Shown here piece by piece: positions 6,088 to 33,307 of a stretch of DNA of 36,457 nt (positions are counted from its first letter, which is position 1; each line of letters opens with the position of its first letter). The position numbers were made by a program, and so were the translations under genes. This DNA is from a virus. The stretch is taken from the UHGV virus genome UHGV-0171044. The stretch is one strand, 5' to 3'. The notes under the pieces are model-generated. The model made no database searches, had not been told where the DNA came from, and was given only the letters and a program-made list of their open reading frames with translations.

Positions 6088-6420
6088 TCAATCGTAATAA
6101 GCTGGAATTGATTTTCCGCGTTGCTTCTGGCGGCCTGAGCAAGTCACACCCATTTCACTGCGTGGCTTGCTGTACCATGTGCGCTGATTCTTGCGCTCAA
6201 TACGTTGCAGGTTGCTTTCAATCTGTTCGTGGTATTCAGCCAGCACCGTAAGGTCTATCGGATTCAGTGCGCTTTCTACTCGTGATTTCGGTTTGCGATT
6301 CAGTGAGAGAATAGGGCGGTTAACTGGTTTAGCGCTTACCCCAACCAACAGGGGATTTGCTGCTTTCCATTGAGCCTGTTTCTCTGCGCGACGTTCGCGG
6401 CGGCGTGTTTGTGCATCCAT
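6088..6420 (-). CDS. N: antitermination protein N (lambda type)
   Basis: MDAQTRRRERRAEKQAQWKAANPLLVGVSAKPVNRPILSLNRKPKSRVESALNPIDLTVLAEY matches lambda N including the arginine-rich boxB-binding motif; real start is the internal ATG at 6420. Confidence 0.9.
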   Translation of the reverse strand: MDAQTRRRERRAEKQAQWKAANPLLVGVSAKPVNRPILSLNRKPKSRVESALNPIDLTVLAEYHEQIESNLQRIERKNQRTWYSKPRSEMGVTCSGRQKQRGKSIPAYYD

Positions 6421-6578
6421 CTGGATTCTCCTGTCAGTTAGCTTTGGTGGTGTGTGGGAGTCGTAGTCCTGAACGAAAACACCCCGCGATTGGCGCATTG
6501 GCAGCTAATCCGGATTCGCACTTCCGGCCAATGCTTCGTTTCGTATCACACACCCCAAAGCCTTCTGCTTTGAATGCT

Positions 6579-6771: not shown

Positions 6772-8115
<1,344 letters not shown>

Positions 8116-8164: not shown

Positions 8165-8243
8165 ATCAAATTAAACCACACCTATGGTGTATGCATTTAT
8201 TTGCATACATTCAATCAATTGTTATCTAAGGAAATACTTACAT

Positions 8244-8522
8244 ATGCAACTTACAAGTACTCGCAAGAAAGCGAATGCAATTACAAGCAACATCCTGAAT
8301 CGAATTGCTGTACGTGGTCAGCGAAAGGTTGCCGACGCGTTAGGGATTAATGAATCGCAAATTTCGCGATGGAAAGACAGCTTCATCCCAAAAATGGGAA
8401 TGCTTCTGGCTGTTCTTGAATGGGGTGTTGAAGACGAGGAGTTGGCGGAACTGGCTAAGAAAGTAGCCAGAATGCTGACAAAAGAAAAAGCCCCGAAGAA
8501 CGGCGAATTCTTCGAGGCCTGA
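8244..8522 (+). CDS. cII: CII transcriptional activator
   Basis: [38 protein letters not shown] resembles lambda CII; RBS AAGGAAATACTTACATATG matches lambda cII as recalled; the track ORF starts too early. Confidence 0.85.
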
Positions 8523-8556: not shown

Positions 8557-8703
8557 ATGACAAAACAACTCAGTCCTTACCAGGACAAAATTCACAAACA
8601 CATACTACGTGATCGCTTCCTGTCCAGCTTCAAGCAGCCTGGTCGATTCCGGGCTGAGTTGGAAAAAGTGAAGCTGATGCAGAAGGAGAAAGGTCATGAG
8701 TAA
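8557..8703 (+). CDS. hypothetical small protein (48 aa) between cII and the initiator
   Basis: hand-translated [51 protein letters not shown] with AGGAG RBS; P22 carries an orf48 at this position. Confidence 0.4.
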
Positions 8704-9556
8704 TCTTGCAACCGTAACACATTTAAGGCCTTCACAACGGCCTGTGGAGCGTCGTGTGGCAGAAGTTGAAGATGGTTATACCCGTCTTGCAAATGCCCTG
8801 TATGAAGAGCTTATCGGCGCAGATTTAACGAAAAATCAGAGCAAGGTTGCCCACGCCATATGCCGTAAAACATACGGATACGGTAAAAAGATGGATCGCA
8901 TCTCTGATAGTCAGTTAGCTCAAATTACCAGGCTGCCAAGACAGAAGGTAAACAAGGCCAAGAATGAGCTTATCGCGATGAAGGTTATCCTTCGCGAAGG
9001 CCAGCAAATCGGGCCTAACAAGAACATCGAGGAATGGCAAATAGAAGGGTGTCACTACTCTGGTGATAATGTCACTGCATTGGTGACAAAAAGTGTCACC
9101 AAAACGGTGACAGCGCTGTCACCAAAACAGGGACACACAAAAGAAACTATTACAAAAGAAAAAAGAAATAATAAAAACACTATGTCCGAAAGTGTTCGGA
9201 CGGAGTGTGAAAAATCACCTGACCGTCACGAAGAAACCGACAAGGCATTCGAGGAAATATTCTGGTGTGCAGGCATGCGGAAAGCCGGGAAGAAAAACGC
9301 AGCTTCAGCATTCAGAACACAGTTCAGGGAATGGCGTAAAACTACCAAGGGTACGGCAAGCGAGTTTGCCACGATGCTGGCAGAAGACATCGCATGCAGG
9401 AATGGTAAGCAGTTCGGATTCGACAGGTTGTTACCATCGAGCTACCTGAACGGTCAGCGCTGGAACGACGAGAAGCCAGAAACTATTCAACCACAATCCA
9501 AACCATCATCCGCAATCACCGTATCGAAAACTGGCTACGTGTTTTTCGACAGGTGA
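8696..9556 (+). CDS. replication initiator (O-like, P22 gene 18-type N-terminal domain)
   Basis: N-terminal replication-protein-O domain ([38 protein letters not shown]); AAGGAG RBS; contains the iteron-encoding segment. Confidence 0.8.
9049..9180 (+). promoter_or_regulatory. origin of replication: iterons plus AT-rich tract inside the initiator gene
   Basis: repeated GGTGACA/TGTCACC units (TGGTGACAAAAAGTGTCACCAAAACGGTGACAGCGCTGTCACCAAAAC) followed by an A-rich stretch, as in lambda ori within O. Confidence 0.6.
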
Positions 9557-9559
9557 ACC

Positions 9560-9667
9560 ATGAAATCAAAAATCAAATCGCTACTGGTCGCTGGTTATAA
9601 CCACGGCTGGTTAAGTATTTCGTTTGTCGATTTCTGGTTTAAAAATCTCAATCTGAGGGAATCATGA
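9560..9667 (+). CDS. hypothetical 35-aa ORF coupled to the helicase start
   Basis: ATG after AGGTGA; its stop overlaps the primase-helicase ATG as ATGA; hand-translated, could be spurious. Confidence 0.25.
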   Translation: MKSKIKSLLVAGYNHGWLSISFVDFWFKNLNLRES

Positions 9668-11544
9668 CACCAAGTGAACTTAGCGACCTGCTTTGGGCGC
9701 AGGTTGACAGGGTGGCTCCTCACCTGTTGCCAAACGGCAAGAAAGAGGGGCATGAGTGGGTTGCCGGTAACGTCAACGGTGACAAGGGAAACAGCCTTAA
9801 GGTCAACATTAGCGGCAAGAAAAAATGGGCTGATTTCGCTGAGGGAGACGGCGGTGACATGCTTGATTTGTGGATGGCATGTCGTGGAATTAACCTGCAT
9901 CAGGCTATGCAGGAAGCGAAAGCATTTCTCGGTATCAAGGATGACGATCACCATTTCGATGCCAGACGTGAGAAGAAATTCTCCAGACCTGATCGCAAGA
10001 AAATCGCCCGCTACGTTACCAGAACAGAATCCCATCTTGAGTACCTGCAATCGCGTGGCATATCGCCAGAAGTCGTAAAGCGCTACGAGGTTGTCTGCGG
10101 AAAGGTGTGGAATGGAGAACGAGAACTGGATGCTCTGGTGCTTCCGTACAAACGCGATGGTGAGTTGTTGCAGGTCAAGCGAATCAGCACTGAGCGCCCT
10201 GACGGGAAGAAAGTCATTATGGCAGAAGGTGATTGCGAACCTTGTCTGTTCGGATGGCAGGCTCTGGACGCAGGCGTGAGGGCGGTTGTACTTTGCGAAG
10301 GCGAAATTGATTGTATGAGCTATGCGCAATACGGCATCTCGGCGTTATCCGTGCCGTTTGGTGGCGGGAAAGGCGCTAAGCAACAGTGGATTGAGTTTGA
10401 GTATCACAACCTCGACAGGTTTGAGGAAATATTCATCTCGATGGACGTTGATGATGTTGGTCGTGAAGCCGCAAGGGAAATCGCAAGCCGACTCGGTGAA
10501 CATCGTTGCCGTCTTGTTACTCTGCCGTACAAAGACATCAACGAATGCCTGATGAACGGTGTTACCGAGGATGAAATCTGGCAGTACATCGGCACGGCAT
10601 CCTACTTCGATCCTGAAGAACTCTACAGCGCGCGAGAGTTTTACCAGGACACTATCAACGCTTTCTACGGCAAGCAGCAGTATCTGTTTAATCCACCGTG
10701 GGAATCTCTGGCAGATAAATTCCAGTTCCGTGAGGCAGAGTTGACGCTGGTCAATGGTGTGAACGGTCACGGAAAAACGGAGGTTGTCGGGCATATGGCA
10801 CTTGAGGCAATGCGTCAGGGTGTGAAGACATGCATCGCGTCACTTGAGCTGAAGCCTGGTATTCTCCTTAAGCGCCTTACCCGTCAGGCGACGTGCTGCA
10901 AGATGCCGCCAGTGCTGGAAATTGACTCTGCATTTAAATTTTATGACGAAAGACTTTGGGTGTTTGGCCTGACCGGAACAGCGAAAGCCGACAGGCTGAT
11001 CGAAATATTCGACTACGCTCGCCGCCGATACGGGATCCAGTTATTCATCATCGACAGCCTGATGAAATGTGGCATAGGCGACGATGACTATAACGGGCAG
11101 AAGGCGTTTGTCGACTCGATTTGCGACTTCAAAAACAAAACAAACTCCCACGTCATTCTCGTTACTCACTCGCGAAAAGGAGACAGCGAAGAAAAACCAA
11201 CCGGGAAAATGGACGTAAAAGGCTCTGGAGCGATAACAGACCTGACAGACAACCTTTTTATCATCTGGCGTAACAAGGCTCGCGAGAGAGCGTTACAGAG
11301 AGTTCAGAGTGGTGAAAAGATGTCAGAGAAGGACGAACAGCTACTGGCATCTCCTGCATCTGTTTTGATGCTTGAAAAACAACGTAACGGCGAAGGTTGG
11401 GAAGGTGGTGTCCCGTTGTTCCTTGACGAGCAATCGCACCAGTTCCTGCAACTTGAATCAGGATCGCCATATAGCTACATCGCCAATATGCCGAAATCGG
11501 AATATGACGAGGCGTGGCGACAGGAAAACGTGACGGAGTATTAA
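9664..11544 (+). CDS. bifunctional DNA primase-helicase (Cys-free N-terminal domain, Toprim, P-loop helicase domain)
   Basis: Toprim-like EGEIDCMS and Walker A GVNGHGKTE followed by Walker B-like IIDSL; N-terminal domain lacks the zinc-binding cysteines. Confidence 0.85.
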   Translation: MTPSELSDLLWAQVDRVAPHLLPNGKKEGHEWVAGNVNGDKGNSLKVNISGKKKWADFAEGDGGDMLDLWMACRGINLHQAMQEAKAFLGIKDDDHHFDARREKKFSRPDRKKIARYVTRTESHLEYLQSRGISPEVVKRYEVVCGKVWNGERELDALVLPYKRDGELLQVKRISTERPDGKKVIMAEGDCEPCLFGWQALDAGVRAVVLCEGEIDCMSYAQYGISALSVPFGGGKGAKQQWIEFEYHNLDRFEEIFISMDVDDVGREAAREIASRLGEHRCRLVTLPYKDINECLMNGVTEDEIWQYIGTASYFDPEELYSAREFYQDTINAFYGKQQYLFNPPWESLADKFQFREAELTLVNGVNGHGKTEVVGHMALEAMRQGVKTCIASLELKPGILLKRLTRQATCCKMPPVLEIDSAFKFYDERLWVFGLTGTAKADRLIEIFDYARRRYGIQLFIIDSLMKCGIGDDDYNGQKAFVDSICDFKNKTNSHVILVTHSRKGDSEEKPTGKMDVKGSGAITDLTDNLFIIWRNKARERALQRVQSGEKMSEKDEQLLASPASVLMLEKQRNGEGWEGGVPLFLDEQSHQFLQLESGSPYSYIANMPKSEYDEAWRQENVTEY

Positions 11545-11620
11545 ATGACCATCTACATCACTGAGCTAATAACAGGCCTGCTGGTAATCGCAGGCCTTTT
11601 TATTTGGGGGAGAGTAAATC

Positions 11621-11827
11621 GTGGCTGAGTTTATGCTCGTCGCACTCAAATGCGTTGGCGTTGGATGGATTCTTCTGACGTTTTTTATTGTTCTGCATAG
11701 CTACATTCGTCTTGTGAATGACGGTAAAGACCCATGGTATACGTTGTTTGGCGCTGCATTTGTCTGGGTGATTATCGGTGTTATGCCTGTCGCTGTAGCA
11801 AAAATGGCGTGGCGTTTTGTGAGTTAA
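11621..11827 (+). CDS. hypothetical small membrane protein
   Basis: two predicted transmembrane segments; GTG start after a GGGGGAGAG RBS. Confidence 0.45.
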   Translation: MAEFMLVALKCVGVGWILLTFFIVLHSYIRLVNDGKDPWYTLFGAAFVWVIIGVMPVAVAKMAWRFVS

Positions 11828-11839
11828 GCGGAGGTAAAC

Positions 11840-12166
11840 GTGGCTGACTGGCAAATTCCAATCATCATTCTTGCCGGAGCTTCGCTGGTTGCTGGCTTTA
11901 TCCTGCTGAAGAAGCATAAAGACCGTGATCAAAAAGTCGAAGTTCTCTATGGGTATCCAGCGAACAGCACAACATGGCTGACCATTTACCACTACCGAAA
12001 ATCAGGCCGCTGGGTATTCGAATGGGATGATCTGTTCGCTGAAAAGCGACCAAAGTCATGGGGAGACATCAGCGAATGCATGATGTTTGAAGAAAGAAAA
12101 TCCGGCGCAACCCGAGAAGAGTTTAACGAAGCGTGGGCGCGATTAAGTGAGAGAGGGTATTTGTGA
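11840..12166 (+). CDS. hypothetical membrane-anchored protein
   Basis: N-terminal transmembrane helix; GTG start after a GGAGG RBS. Confidence 0.5.
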   Translation: MADWQIPIIILAGASLVAGFILLKKHKDRDQKVEVLYGYPANSTTWLTIYHYRKSGRWVFEWDDLFAEKRPKSWGDISECMMFEERKSGATREEFNEAWARLSERGYL

Positions 12167-12363
12167 GCAAGTACGAAAAATTAGATCAAAACATTCTTTC
12201 AATGCTGAGTGAAAGACCAACACCTGTTTTTGATATCTGGCTTAAATGGCGGAGCAATGGAATGTATATCGAAACCATCGATCGTCGTATGCAATACCTG
12301 AGAAAGAAAGGGCTTGTTGCAAATGTGCGTGGGAAGGGTTGGGTGAAAATTAACCTGTCATAA
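12163..12363 (+). CDS. hypothetical small protein
   Basis: GTG start overlapping the upstream stop as GTGA. Confidence 0.45.
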   Translation: MSKYEKLDQNILSMLSERPTPVFDIWLKWRSNGMYIETIDRRMQYLRKKGLVANVRGKGWVKINLS

Positions 12364-12374
12364 CGGGGATTGAT

Positions 12375-12689
12375 ATGGACGAATCAAGAAAGCAGTTTGA
12401 AGAATACGTTGCCAAAAAATTGAGATTACCATTCGAGATGATAACCGAGGCCAGAAATGGTGATAGGTACTTCGCATTTTCAAGTATGGATATTCGTCAC
12501 TCCTTAAATGAGTGGTGGACTTTATGGCAGGCATCGCGAGCAGCTATTGAAATAACCGCGCCAAAGTTTATCGACAGCAGAGAAGCATTAGCCAAAGGGT
12601 TTACTGTTGATTATTCCAATGGATTCGGTGATGGAATGGATGCTTATGAGGAAAACATCCGCGCTGCTGGAATCAAAGTGAAGGAGTGA
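12375..12689 (+). CDS. hypothetical protein
   Basis: 104-aa ORF, ATG preceded by a G-rich RBS. Confidence 0.5.
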   Translation: MDESRKQFEEYVAKKLRLPFEMITEARNGDRYFAFSSMDIRHSLNEWWTLWQASRAAIEITAPKFIDSREALAKGFTVDYSNGFGDGMDAYEENIRAAGIKVKE

Positions 12690-12691
12690 GC

Positions 12692-12877
12692 ATGAGTCGA
12701 CGAAGTAGCTTTTTGGGGTTTGTAATATTCCTGTCCTGCACTGGTTACATCGTAATCTGGTCAATTTCGAACATTGACCGTGGCGGGGAATATCTCATTG
12801 TAATGTTCTTTCCTTTGTTTCTTGGGTGGTACGCCGCAAGGTTGCTGGAAGAATGGGGTTACAGGCATAAAAAATAA
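12692..12877 (+). CDS. hypothetical small membrane protein
   Basis: ATG 5 nt after AAGGAG; two hydrophobic helices. Confidence 0.45.
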   Translation: MSRRSSFLGFVIFLSCTGYIVIWSISNIDRGGEYLIVMFFPLFLGWYAARLLEEWGYRHKK

Positions 12878-12888
12878 AGGAGTGTTCA

Positions 12889-13299
12889 GTGAAGCAAACA
12901 ATATTCCTCCGAACTAAGCAACAACAGCAAGCCGCAATCAACGCCATCCTCGCAACACCACTCGATAAAGACAAGCCAGTCACCATCCGCATTACTGACT
13001 ACAAGCGCAACCTTGACCAGAACGCAAAATTTCACGCGATGCTGGCGGATATCGCTCGTCAGGTTCAATGGTGCGGCAAATGGTTAAAACCAGAACAATG
13101 GAAGGTTTTGTTGATCAGCGGTCATGCAGTGGCAACAAAGCAGGAAGCTGATGTTTTGCCCGGGCTTGAAGGCGAATACGTCAACATTCGCGAAAGCAGC
13201 GCGCAGATGAGTGTGAAGCGTATGGCAAGTCTGATTGAGTACACGACAGCATGGGCTATTGGTCAGGGTGTCAGATTTACCGACAGGAGGTACGAATGA
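12889..13299 (+). CDS. ninB: NinB recombination protein
   Basis: resembles lambda NinB ([13 protein letters not shown] ... QVQWCGKWL); GTG start after AAGGAG. Confidence 0.85.
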
Positions 13300-13472
13300 G
13301 ACGACAGCGACGAAGTATCACCGACATCATCTGCGAAAACTGCAAATACCTTCCAACGAAACGCTCCAGAAATAAACGCAAGCCAATCCCAAAAGAATCT
13401 GACGTAAAAACCTTCAATTACACGGCTCACCTGTGGGATATCCGGTGGCTAAGACATCGTGCGAGGAAATGA
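13296..13472 (+). CDS. ninE: NinE
   Basis: [52 protein letters not shown] matches lambda NinE; ATGA overlap with ninB. Confidence 0.8.
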
Positions 13473-13474
13473 CA

Positions 13475-13828
13475 ATGGATTATTCACAGTTAAGTGATTT
13501 TGAAATTAACAGAATGGTAGGAGACATAATTTTTAAAGGCCTTTGGGCATGTAAACCGGAAACATCAGGGAATAACACCAACAAATGGTATTACGGAAAT
13601 GCTGATACAACTTTTGAGCCATTAAACCCTTTACCTGACTACTGCAATGATCCTAGCGCCTCATGGCCGATTATTGAGAAGTACAGGATTAGCATTATCA
13701 ATCTCGATGAAGACGAGTGGGGTGCACGTGGTGTGGCCGACTGTAAATCTAAGCGAGCTATACATGAAAATTCCCTCCGCGCCGCCATGATTGTCTTTCT
13801 CATGATGCAGGACGCCAATAATGCTTAG
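13475..13828 (+). CDS. hypothetical nin-region protein
   Basis: 117-aa ORF; second ATG chosen for its spacing from GAGGAA. Confidence 0.5.
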   Translation: MDYSQLSDFEINRMVGDIIFKGLWACKPETSGNNTNKWYYGNADTTFEPLNPLPDYCNDPSASWPIIEKYRISIINLDEDEWGARGVADCKSKRAIHENSLRAAMIVFLMMQDANNA

Positions 13829-14844: not shown

Positions 14845-15029
14845 ACGCCACAATTCAAACGATACCAGAGCTTCTTATCCAGACACGAGGCAATCAGACC
14901 GAAGTGGCAAGGATGCTTTCCTGCGCAAGAGGAACAGTGCTCAAGTACAACCGAGACAGCAAAGGCGAGCGTCACGTAATAGTTAACGGCGTCCTGATGG
15001 TCAAACAGGGCAAGAGGGGAAGACGATGA
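14841..15029 (+). CDS. ninH: NinH
   Basis: YGNQTEVARMLSCARGTVLKY ... IVNGVLMV resembles lambda NinH. Confidence 0.75.
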   Translation: MNATIQTIPELLIQTRGNQTEVARMLSCARGTVLKYNRDSKGERHVIVNGVLMVKQGKRGRR

Positions 15030-15544
15030 GCATAAGAGAACTAAACCTCACCAAAGAACAGCACGATTGGCTGAATGGCTGGCTTGAACTGTGGGGCGCA
15101 TGGGTTTATTCAGGCCGCCTGGAAAAGCGCATGAGCAGCGTAATAGCGAAGTTCATGGAGAGCGTAGAGCCGGGAAGAGTTATGACAAGGCCAATGTGTA
15201 ATGATGATGATGGAATGTTGATTTCTCAGGTCGTCGATTCCGTCATGTACATTGACAAGAAAGCCTTTGGCATCCTCCTCAGCTACTACGCTCATGGTTC
15301 ATCTAAGCGAGCAATTGCATCCTACTATCACGCGACTGCAAAGCCACGCAAGATGTGTGGGCGTGGTGGCGAGGGATGGAGAAAACCTTCACTGGCAACC
15401 TGTAGAAACGAAATTGACGATATCCTGAAAGCGTCATTATTTGTTTTGTACCAACCAATGCAAAATGCTTTCAAAATGCGTAAACGTGTTGAGAAAGTTA
15501 AGCATGTTGCTGTTAAAAGTCTTGACATGCAATTATCCATTTAG
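15026..15544 (+). CDS. Q: late antiterminator Q (phage 21/82, QuuD-like type)
   Basis: LELWGAWVYSG ... RPMCNDDDGMLISQVVDSV resembles the QuuD-type Q family; immediately upstream of pR'/tR'. Confidence 0.8.
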   Translation: MSIRELNLTKEQHDWLNGWLELWGAWVYSGRLEKRMSSVIAKFMESVEPGRVMTRPMCNDDDGMLISQVVDSVMYIDKKAFGILLSYYAHGSSKRAIASYYHATAKPRKMCGRGGEGWRKPSLATCRNEIDDILKASLFVLYQPMQNAFKMRKRVEKVKHVAVKSLDMQLSI

Positions 15545-15607: not shown

Positions 15608-15682
15608 GGGTCAGTCGTATAAAGGTCATTACGGAAGGCTGTTAACCTTCTTATCGTGGTTCGAGCCCACGCTGTCCCGCCA
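15608..15682 (+). tRNA. tRNA-Asn (anticodon GTT), folded by hand
   Basis: acceptor GGGTCAG/CTGTCCC (one T-T mismatch), anticodon stem GAAGG/CCTTC with loop CTGTTAA, T-arm CGTGG-TTCGAGC-CCACG, genomic CCA. Confidence 0.55.
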
Positions 15683-15687
15683 AACAT

Positions 15688-15763
15688 GCTGGTTTAGCTC
15701 CAATGGTAGAGCAGTCGCCTTGTAAGCGAATGGGTAGCGGTTCAAGTCCGTTAACCAGCACCA
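15688..15763 (+). tRNA. tRNA-Thr (anticodon TGT), folded by hand
   Basis: acceptor GCTGGTT/AACCAGC, D-arm GCTC-CAATGGTA-GAGC, anticodon loop CTTGTAA, T-arm AGCGG-TTCAAGT-CCGTT, genomic CCA. Confidence 0.7.
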
Positions 15764-33239: not shown

Positions 33240-33307
33240 AGTTGAAGCCCCAACTGCGGGAACAGTCAGGGCTTCGGTATCAACAAATCGGATTAGGAAA
33301 TATTGAC

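Follow-up and report, generated by a model that had tools for sequence, protein, structure and literature searches.

What occupies the gap between the replication genes and ninB in this phage, where six small open reading frames (ORFs) are packed between positions 11545 and 12877? The initial annotation of the stretch of DNA analysed here (36,457 nucleotides, referred to below as the window) had described five consecutive ORFs of 61–108 aa, three with GTG starts and three with predicted transmembrane (TM) helices, plus a possible 27-aa hydrophobic peptide. All six ORFs were found on the + strand, the five of 61–108 aa include three GTG starts when ORF6 is taken in its 61-aa ATG form, and hydropathy again gave three membrane ORFs, with two TM segments in the 68-aa product (ORF2), one in the 108-aa product (ORF3) and two in the 63-aa form of ORF6. 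Our analysis finds the region to be an unremarkable part of a P22-like phage and one that is already catalogued. We put a probability of roughly three in four on its identity, anatomy and expression logic being those of an Sf6/HK620-like nin-region start that carries accessory cassettes.

The locus opens the nin region of a P22-like phage

The whole window has its closest relatives in Sf6, HK620 and other Lederbergvirus phages. Its gene content includes a CI-like repressor, an N-like antiterminator (6088–6498, − strand), CII, an O-like protein and a primase-helicase, followed by NinB, RusA and a Q-like antiterminator, and the window belongs with the P22-like phages (Lederbergvirus), among which it is Sf6/HK620-like. 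The placement between helicase and ninB given earlier is correct: upstream lies a primase/helicase gene with Toprim and DnaB-like parts (9664–11544, + strand; phrog_239, E=5e-171; Pfam Toprim_2), and downstream lies ninB (12889–13299, + strand; PF05772, E=1e-55; phrog_72), which encodes an Orf-type recombination mediator and has a GTG start preceded by AAGGAG. The 3’ limit of the replication module is exactly the 11545 boundary, and most megablast matches in E. coli and phages begin at 11545, with other helicases upstream. The stretch from 11545 to 12877 is the beginning of the nin region, and ORFs 2–6 are placed in the pR early-right operon, after the replication genes and before the Q-like antiterminator. 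A 130-aa antisense ORF (11600–11992, − strand) was taken as spurious because it has no family match and the genes opposite it are under purifying selection.

The 27-aa frame is the tR2 terminator

The first of the six frames, a 27-aa ATG ORF at 11545–11628 (+ strand) that matches the ‘NinA’ family phrog_5907 (E=1e-18), corresponds to a conserved boundary sequence (bsq6 in Sf6) which contains both the tR2 terminator and the ribosome-binding site of ORF2. tR2 itself, an intrinsic terminator at 11574–11606 (+ strand), consists of a stem of AGGCCUGC and GCAGGCCU around an 8-nt loop, followed by UUUUUAUUU; in our terminator scan, where it was the sole strong terminator, it was scored as 8 pairs (6 GC) with the U-tract TTTTTATTT, and its RNA fold has a minimum free energy of −17.3 kcal/mol (z=−2.1). 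It is identical to the terminator in the lambda ren–ninB intergenic region, and this match, together with its site between the replication genes and ninB, identifies it as a homologue of lambda tR2. About 70 nt around it are almost invariant in an alignment of the window, lambda, Sf6 and HK620, with no change from ATGACCATCTACAT through TTTGGGGGAGAG. Existing records already annotate gene 45/NinA, bsq6 and tR2 in Sf6, and ninA and tR2 in HK620 and P22.

Conservation of the 27-aa frame is at the nucleotide level, extending to third codon positions, and its hydrophobic core, LLVIAGLFIW, is hydrophobic because the GC stem and the T-run get translated. The supposed hydrophobic peptide is therefore the tR2/NinA boundary sequence, a lambda-type tR2 accidentally readable as an ORF, and it is probably not a functional peptide. 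The initial annotation had named matches to known nin genes with established roles as the evidence that would count against it, and among its ORFs ninA/tR2 alone is such a match.

A second terminator-like site (11657–11682) was taken as chance, because it has only 3 GC pairs, lies within ORF2 and is one of 4 such sites in a scan expected to give 2.0±1.4. An Rfam search of 11545–12877 returned no RNA family.

ORFs 2–5 are genes of known phage families

The earlier statement that none of the five ORFs matches a family does not stand, as four of the five fall into phrog_1165, phrog_5903, phrog_7185 and phrog_343, ORF5 is additionally a probable member of PF26207, and three match the annotated Sf6 genes 46–48.

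ORF2 (68 aa, GTG start, 11621–11827, + strand) matches phrog_1165 over its full length (E=1.6e-39; residues 1–68 on positions 1–68 of 68) and starts behind the boundary-sequence Shine-Dalgarno GGGGGAGAG. Its product is predicted to be a two-TM hairpin peptide of the inner membrane. It was found in 107 phage records, directly 3’ of ninA/tR2 in all records and loci whose context was examined, and its dN/dS is 0.32–0.40 against an allele class of 54–60% identity.

ORF3 (108 aa, GTG start, 11840–12166, + strand) is Sf6 gp46 and matches phrog_5903 over its full length (E=1.1e-75). Hydropathy gives a single N-terminal TM segment, which the AF2 model renders as a helix at residues 5–27; this anchor is followed by a basic linker (KKHKDRDQK) and then, over about 75 aa, by a conserved alpha/beta domain with the core motif YGYP..WLTIYH.R..W.FEWDDLF..GRPKSWG. 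The topology is probably N-out, with the domain in the cytoplasm. The family alignment has 12 invariant columns among 34 sequences, and protein homologues reach down to about 43% identity with the motifs conserved. They include proteins of virulent phages, namely the jumbo phage Goslar, the 112-kb phage KookSpook and a 148-kb contig that encodes a family-A DNA polymerase. Fold searches with ORF3 returned no structural relative, BFVD giving sequence homologues only, and PDB sequence searches by profiles of ORF3, ORF4 and ORF5 returned nothing significant. Since the domain is confidently modelled by AF2, has no structural relative in these searches and is common to temperate and virulent phages, it is a clean target for functional work.

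ORF4 (66 aa, GTG start, 12163–12363, + strand) is Sf6 gp47 and matches phrog_7185 over its full length (E=1.2e-34), with 20 homologue clusters that keep conserved motifs down to about 63% identity. Its product is basic (13 K+R vs 6 D+E) and gave in-register but sub-threshold winged helix-turn-helix matches, to the Rrf2 protein 1ylf (E=0.48), to HTH_Crp_2 (E=0.067) and to IscR (E=0.016 at 15 bits, the cut-off being 275 bits), which point to a winged-helix DNA-binding fold as a possible, unproven candidate. A Ren-like identity (phrog_142) was rejected, since hhalign gave a probability of 0.15% for a match to lambda Ren and of 0.8% for one to the Ren-like protein encoded at a related locus (L015).

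ORF5 (104 aa, ATG start, 12375–12689, + strand) matches phrog_343 (E=1.4e-27), residues 1–104 lying on profile positions 36–125 of 135, and is a probable member of the Phage_phiTE_015 family (PF26207), which is precomputed on all 120 ORF5 homologues among the matches listed. PGAP names the product at a 99.6%-identical locus ‘phiTE_015 family protein’, and on this indirect support ORF5 is classed as a predicted soluble member of that family. It was aligned over its full length with 420 family members, showing a conserved N-terminus (MDESRKQFE), a hypervariable middle, a conserved WQASRAAIE and a tail ending in IRAAGIKVKE. The tail pattern GF..M.AY....AGIKVK is held in common with P22 EaD; full-length homology to EaD was rejected, as only the C-terminal 35 residues or so match (E=3e-4; hhalign probability 18%).

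Against diverged copies, ORF2 and ORF5 have dN/dS of 0.3–0.6. ORFs 2–5 are real genes, beyond chance because of their full-length PHROG matches (E=1e-27 to 1e-75), dN/dS below 1 (ORF2 and ORF5) and conserved motifs. Public databases already contain all five exact proteins, ORF6 as 61 aa, each on 166 contigs or more and several on about 1000, and every sequence in the region is public as ‘hypothetical protein’.

ORF6 is probably a gene

ORF6 (12686–12877, + strand) reads either as 61 aa from ATG 12692 or as 63 aa from GTG 12686. Its DNA occurs, with at least 95% identity, in 195 E. coli genomes, and about 1000 contigs elsewhere have the 61-aa product annotated as a ‘hypothetical protein’. It could be argued that the run is partly non-coding, the 27-aa ORF being only a terminator and ORF6 a conserved leader or spacer before ninB that is open by chance. 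For the 27-aa ORF, its overlap with tR2 and the conservation and translation described above fit this. For ORF6, it fits too that the 40 RefSeq records listed (of the 195 genomes) annotate nothing at the matching stretch, as do the lack of a PHROG, Pfam or NCBIfam match and a HMMER search over 1.84 billion representatives that yielded only spurious multi-stretch matches to long proteins; that search also missed ORF6’s own cluster, so the lack of distant homologues is not firm. The polymorphisms likewise sit easily with a non-coding ORF6 (6 synonymous vs 12 non-synonymous, p=0.17; codon positions 6/5/7), and under neutrality 18 changes would leave the frame free of stops in 40% of histories as well.

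Several features of ORF6, however, argue for a coding sequence. A perfect Shine-Dalgarno, AAGGAG at 12679–12684, stands 7 nt before ATG 12692, and the leader of about 25 nt recurs behind two different upstream genes and in two frames, the cassette edges coinciding with ORF plus Shine-Dalgarno in both contexts. Hydropathy gives a clean pair of TM segments with positive-inside termini and a charged C-terminus, suggesting an N-in/C-in hairpin. The frame is unbroken in each of the 61 full-length copies, which represent 18 alleles; it contains no Rfam family and no terminator, and other gene callers call it. We thus regard the partly non-coding reading as rather unlikely. ORF6 is a self-contained cassette with its own Shine-Dalgarno and probably a real gene, a view backed by its anatomy, the selection counts being non-significant.

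A mosaic slot between tR2 and ninB

The initial annotation had also called this slot variable, and comparison with related phages bears this out. P22, in which the ninA/terminator leads straight to ninB, has no gene there and thus lacks all five ORFs, HK620 has one and Sf6 has four; 67 related loci hold 0–4 genes drawn from 12 families, and 62 loci show eleven different arrangements. Breakpoints against Sf6, HK620 and 720R6 fall at 11545, ~11830, ~12370, 12553, ~12695 and 12889, and ORF6 is 95–100% conserved while the adjoining ORF5 ranges from 35% to 100%. The five cassettes assort independently among phages, and each begins either behind a Shine-Dalgarno of its own or at a coupled GTGA/overlapping start. 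Cassette edges consist of a leader of about 25 nt and the opening four codons of the following gene, both of them shared, and recombination at such short conserved gene-boundary sequences probably assembled the five cassettes in an optional gap before ninB. The identical six-part arrangement occurs in an IMG/VR locus (L025, 100%) and the same one in prophages of E. coli PM06121 and ST131 strain 4993 (99.6–99.7%).

The slot has a measurable bias to tiny membrane proteins. In counts drawn from the 67 related loci, small membrane proteins make up 49% of gene occurrences in the slot, whereas over the 3.5 kb downstream of ninB their share is 3%, and by family the enrichment has p=0.075 for at least one TM segment and p=0.02 for at least two. 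Besides ORF2 and ORF6, further slot ORFs that would be tiny two-TM hairpins were seen, an unannotated one of 60 aa (L015:2752–2934) and an uncalled one of about 55 aa (L077). That the slot is a dedicated landing site for tiny two-TM peptides, an unrecognised class of delayed-early membrane effectors, strikes us as a long shot worth stating; such effectors could, for example, block incoming phage DNA in an Imm-like way or modulate membrane potential. If slot peptides did serve inter-phage exclusion or lytic membrane control, they would give phage biology a new class of small proteins.

Expression and possible roles

By analogy with lambda and P22, tR2 would here stop pR transcription unless N-type antitermination is active. 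A crude sigma-70 consensus scan, which could miss a weak or activator-dependent promoter, gave no promoter-like + strand site in 11000–13500. ORFs 2–6 would then be delayed-early genes, made only once the N-like antiterminator allows read-through of tR2, in lytic growth or on induction and not in the quiescent lysogen; this timing is inferred, with N-dependence at tR2 taken from lambda and P22. Expression from the quiescent prophage is unlikely because the genes, for which no promoter was detected, lie downstream of tR2 in a repressed pR operon. Since P22 does without all five, the phage life cycle does not require them.

Homology searches offered little on function. In Pfam and NCBIfam scans none of the six ORFs scored above threshold; the Pfam copy used lacks the PF26207 model and gave no match for ORF5 or for five of its homologues. 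A PADLOC-DB scan of all six at E<=0.1 gave no match except a meaningless CARF fragment in ORF4 (E=0.028, 12 bits). No defence, toxin or holin match was found for the five ORFs, and no functional study was found in the literature on phiTE_015, PF26207, L0091 or Sf6 gp46–48. The exclusion or toxin roles suggested at first, having no homology support in PADLOC, Pfam or NCBIfam, are weakened.

The likeliest role of the cassettes is dispensable membrane or host modulation in lytic growth, and a lytic-phase role is favoured by the ORF3 homologues in virulent phages. The membrane proteins might act at the inner membrane during infection, barring the DNA entry of rival phages as T4 Imm does, or they might tune membrane physiology or lysis timing, while the targets of ORF4 and ORF5, of host or phage origin, would be cytoplasmic. 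This functional guess is tentative, and the odds are against it in its details.

Many of the known exclusion proteins are small and sit in the membrane, and the membrane ORFs could instead serve superinfection exclusion or lysogenic conversion, expressed from the resident prophage in the manner of P22 SieA/SieB or HK97 gp15. The predicted inner-membrane location of three of the five small products, and the variability and membrane enrichment of the slot, agree with this. Classic lysogen-borne exclusion, however, needs expression from the quiescent prophage, and here the lack of a promoter-like site and the position behind tR2 in a repressor-controlled operon speak against it. P22 sieA and sieB, moreover, sit elsewhere with their own annotated promoters, PADLOC gave no match, and the virulent relatives of ORF3 have no lysogen to protect. 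Protection of the lysogen is accordingly improbable.

Still less probable is that ORF3 and ORF4 form a toxin-antitoxin or abortive-infection pair, a membrane-anchored effector with a small DNA-binding partner. The ORF4 GTG overlaps the ORF3 stop (GTGA, 12163–12166), which would couple their translation, but nin regions show GTGA/ATGA overlaps as a general feature (PMC8022706). They occur together in Sf6 and in 5/5 IMG/VR loci having either, and the basic ORF4 product with its weak winged-helix signals would suit the partner’s role. Among diverged homologues, however, each gene is found without the other, and obligate linkage was rejected: ORF3 homologues lack an ORF4 homologue on the 148-kb phage contig, in a Pantoea prophage and in another lambdoid prophage, and ORF4 homologues in Enterobacter prophages do not adjoin an ORF3 homologue. 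No PADLOC or toxin-antitoxin family match and no promoter of their own were detected.

The idea that ORF2 and ORF6 are holin or antiholin-like lysis-timing regulators displaced into the early operon can be set aside as highly improbable, since, for all that their size (68 and 61 aa), two-TM layout and charged C-termini recall class II holins and pinholins such as the phage 21 S68 pinholin, they match no holin family in PHROGs or Pfam, do not adjoin an endolysin and lie in the early-right operon upstream of the Q-like gene, outside a late lysis cassette, where a holin made early would be self-defeating.

Comparison with known systems

The region is textbook lambdoid nin-region mosaicism and matters little as it stands. 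Its modest practical value lies in the warning against taking the ‘NinA peptide’, an artefact of a terminator, at face value and in flagging a conserved 61-aa membrane ORF, found in about 195 complete E. coli genomes and featureless in the RefSeq records inspected.

T4 Imm and P22 SieA are also small inner-membrane phage proteins, and T4 imm is an early gene acting during infection; they share no sequence or profile similarity with the ORFs described here, and the likeness is a functional analogy only. For ORF2, the HK620 copy of the 68-aa ORF after tR2 has 95.6% protein identity and those of HK022, HK75 and Stx2a phages 53–60%, and this phrog_1165 ORF carries no annotation in the original HK620, H-19B and HK022 records. 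In Sf6, gp46 is 99% identical to ORF3, and genes 46–48, which fill the same slot with their order unchanged, have 98% DNA identity to ORF3, ORF4 and the 5’ part of ORF5 up to about 12553, where ORF5 switches to another allele by recombination. Sf6 differs in lacking ORF2 and ORF6 and in carrying a different gene, 49, before ninB. The gene 5’ of tR2 also differs, being a primase-helicase gene in the window, ren in lambda, P in HK620 and gene 12 in P22, whereas the terminator itself, whether called lambda tR2, ‘NinA’ or Sf6 bsq6, is the same hairpin and U-tract at the same site after the replication genes, with nothing of substance to tell them apart.

Results

The run lies between a Toprim/DnaB-type primase-helicase gene (9664–11544) on its left and NinB (12889–13299) on its right, and its six ORFs, densely packed and all on the + strand, fall exactly where the initial annotation placed them: a 27-aa ORF (11545–11628, ATG start), ORF2 (68 aa, 11621–11827, GTG), ORF3 (108 aa, 11840–12166, GTG), ORF4 (66 aa, 12163–12363, GTG, overlapping the ORF3 stop as GTGA), ORF5 (104 aa, 12375–12689, ATG) and ORF6 (12686–12877; 63 aa from a GTG, 61 aa from the ATG at 12692). 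Purine-rich Shine-Dalgarno sequences precede ORF2 (GGGGGAGAG), ORF3 (GGAGG), ORF4 (GAGAGAGGG), ORF5 (GGGGA) and ORF6 (AAGGAG), and hydropathy gives two TM segments in ORF2, one in ORF3 and two in the 63-aa form of ORF6. The view of the slot as variable and membrane-rich stands, but its novelty had been overstated: four of the five genes said to match no recognized family belong to catalogued ones, three have counterparts that were annotated in Sf6 two decades ago, and the complete arrangement is already in public genomes at 99.7–100% identity.

The closest relatives of this P22-like phage are Sf6 and HK620. Its early-right operon is of the standard lambdoid type, the landmarks being a CI-like repressor (7173–7805, - strand), an N-like antiterminator (6088–6498, - strand), CII (8184–8522), an O-like initiator (8696–9556), NinB and RusA after the run, and a Q-like antiterminator (15026–15544). 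This gene order makes the run the start of the 'nin region', which the literature describes as dispensable and usually mosaic, with closely packed genes and many ATGA-type overlaps (PMC8022706; PMC2629481). A 35-aa ORF (9560–9667, +) between the O-like and primase-helicase genes has a counterpart in phage vB_EcoP-720R6 whose annotation reads hypothetical protein, and tRNA-Asn(GTT) and tRNA-Thr(TGT) genes (15608–15763, +) lie directly 3' of the Q-like gene, ahead of the lysis genes. Elsewhere, Rfam identifies sar RNA (RF00262, 71.6 bits; 33240–33306, -), P22's antisense regulator of ant in immI, so a secondary immunity region of the P22 type is present in the window.

The 27-aa ORF, initially thought a possible hydrophobic peptide, proved to overlie tR2. 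An 8-bp GC-rich hairpin (11574–11606) is followed by TTTTTATTT, and about 70 nt, from the ORF's ATG through GGGGGAGAG (the ribosome-binding site for whichever gene comes next), are invariant in an alignment of the window, the lambda ren-ninB intergenic region, Sf6 and HK620. In the Sf6 record the stretch carries three annotations, gene 45 ('similar to phage 21 NinA'), 'bsq6 boundary sequence' and 'terminator, homology to lambda tR2'; HK620 and P22 have ninA and a terminator there. The hydrophobic core LLVIAGLFIW is the stem and T-run in translation, and the conservation is at the nucleotide level, which is why we read the ORF as a probable terminator and boundary element rather than a membrane peptide, though it may still be translated. 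Most megablast matches, in E. coli genomes and phages, start exactly at 11545 with differing helicases upstream, so the stretch acts as a joint for recombination. At that very position the replication module is exchanged, and near-identical E. coli copies of 11545–13000 are preceded by DnaB-type helicases, lambda-P-type proteins or ren, not by the window's primase-helicase.

ORF2 is a full-length match to phrog_1165 (E=1.6e-39) and occurs in 107 phage records (among them HK620, H-19B, HK022, HK75, mEp phages, Salmonella P22-likes and many Stx2a phages), often without annotation and directly after ninA/tR2 in every context examined. It falls into two allele classes, 54–60% identical, that retain a two-TM hairpin (loop RLV(N/G)(D/E)GKD) and share an identical C-terminus, and a dN/dS of 0.32–0.40 at dS ~1 marks it as a real gene. 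A 130-aa antisense ORF (11600–11992, -) across ORF2 and ORF3 matches no PHROG, and we regard it as spurious.

ORF3 is Sf6 gp46 (phrog_5903, E=1e-75), and none of its 58 homologue clusters carries a Pfam domain. Its N-terminal hydrophobic helix is variable, short or missing in some homologues; residues 32–108 hold twelve invariant positions (YGYP, T, YH, R, EW, LF). An AF2 model from the homologue alignment (pLDDT 88, ~95 across the domain) has a helix at 5–27, three consecutive beta-strands, a short fourth strand and a C-terminal helix. Because the basic stretch KKHKDRDQK directly follows the first helix, the positive-inside rule suggests an N-out/C-in topology and a cytoplasmic domain. Virulent phages encode homologues (jumbo phage Goslar, 112-kb phage KookSpook, seszw-type siphoviruses); others lie on a 148-kb contig, beside genes for DNA polymerase A and HNH, or elsewhere in prophage genomes. 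This distribution favors a function in infection over one in lysogeny.

ORF4, a basic protein, is Sf6 gp47 (phrog_7185, E=1e-34), with only 20 homologue clusters, down to ~63% identity. Three independent sub-threshold matches to winged-helix regulators (Rrf2, IscR, Crp-HTH) fall in register over residues ~9–63, and we treat this possible fold as a lead, not a demonstration. ORF4 has no detectable relationship to lambda Ren, and an obligate link to ORF3 was rejected.

ORF5 (phrog_343, 420 homologues; dN/dS 0.33–0.58) is assigned to PF26207 (Phage_phiTE_015) through precomputed annotation present on 120/120 listed homologues, the Pfam copy scanned being one without that model; PGAP names it 'phiTE_015 family protein' at a locus 99.6% identical. 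In the family a conserved N-terminus (MDESRKQFE) gives way to a hypervariable middle, followed by the conserved motif WQASRAAIE and a C-terminal tail ending IRAAGIKVKE. The ends are nearly invariant around a middle of ~40 residues that comes in many unrelated versions, a pattern resembling mosaicism within the gene, flanked by conserved ends. P22 EaD and a few other PHROGs resemble ORF5 in the C-terminal tail only.

ORF6 has no family match in PHROG, Pfam or NCBIfam. Of 5426 complete E. coli genomes, 195 carry its DNA, in each case at 95% identity or more, and none of the 40 RefSeq records listed has an annotated feature there. An exhaustive representative-library search returned no diverged homologue, a weak negative because ORF6's own cluster was not returned either; negatives from this library for very short proteins call for caution. 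The exact 61-aa protein is present in a 15-billion collection, and other pipelines called it on ~1000 contigs. None of 61 full copies (18 alleles) contains a frameshift or stop, but 40% of neutral histories with 18 changes would likewise escape a stop, and the changes are spread 6/5/7 over codon positions, with 6 synonymous against 12 non-synonymous (binomial p=0.17); these figures do not support a gene. The calls by other pipelines, the perfect Shine-Dalgarno, the cassette edges, which match the ORF, and a clean N-in/C-in hairpin favor a gene, and we put the chance that ORF6 is a real one at about three in four.

Of 80 loci picked solely by NinB identity, 67 also have tR2; in these 67 the tR2-ninB gap spans 229–1345 nt and holds 0–4 genes from 12 families. 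Four are predicted membrane families: ORF2 (41 loci), ORF6 (11), an unannotated 60-aa ORF (10) and ORF3 (7). Membrane-protein genes make up 69/141 occurrences in the slot versus 13/447 in the 3.5 kb after ninB; by family the contrast is 4/12 versus 8/68 (p=0.075), or 3/12 versus 2/68 (p=0.02) for families with at least two TM segments. With loci that are related to one another and a crude TM caller, this enrichment in tiny membrane proteins is suggestive only. The 60-aa ORF, strongly hydrophobic (MVNAFICSLFLVAIFHGFLL...), lies directly after ORF6 in an alternative arrangement (related locus L015, 2752–2934, +), recurs in 10 of the 67 loci, has no PHROG match and appears to be uncatalogued. A further tiny membrane ORF, uncalled and of ~55 aa with two TM segments, sits in the equivalent slot of an Enterobacter prophage (L077, 2731–2898, +), in a 230-nt 'gap' after an ORF4 homologue.

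Discussion

The sole strong terminator is tR2, heading the run; a consensus scan found no + strand promoter in 11000–13500, and an Rfam scan of the region found no RNA family. The simplest reading of this layout is that, with an N-like gene present, antiterminated pR transcripts would give delayed-early expression of the ORFs, which would fall in lytic growth or induction and be absent from the repressed prophage. This leaves room for infection-phase roles (T4 Imm-like exclusion, membrane or lysis-timing control, host takeover), for which PADLOC and all family scans returned no homology backing. Delayed-early expression weakens the case for lysogen-type exclusion or conversion.

The 62 IMG/VR loci retrieved through ORF6 show eleven arrangements of the slot; that of the window, tR2-2-3-4-5-6-ninB, occurs in one of them (100% identity) and in E. 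coli prophages (99.6–99.7%). The left edge of the ORF6 cassette is a ~25-nt leader holding AAGGAG, which also encodes the C-terminal GIKVKE* of ORF5-type genes and, read in a different frame, the LESK* end of a phrog_1785 gene; the right edge is the first four codons (GTG AAG CAA AC) common to ninB and an alternative downstream gene. Local BLAST against Sf6, HK620, vB_EcoP-720R6 and one E. coli ST131 prophage places the breakpoints on gene borders. The order is tR2, ORF2, ninB in HK620; tR2, ORF2, ORF5, ninB in 720R6; and tR2, ORF3, ORF4, an ORF5 allele (junction at 12553), another gene and ninB in Sf6, whereas P22 runs from ninA/terminator to ninB with nothing between.
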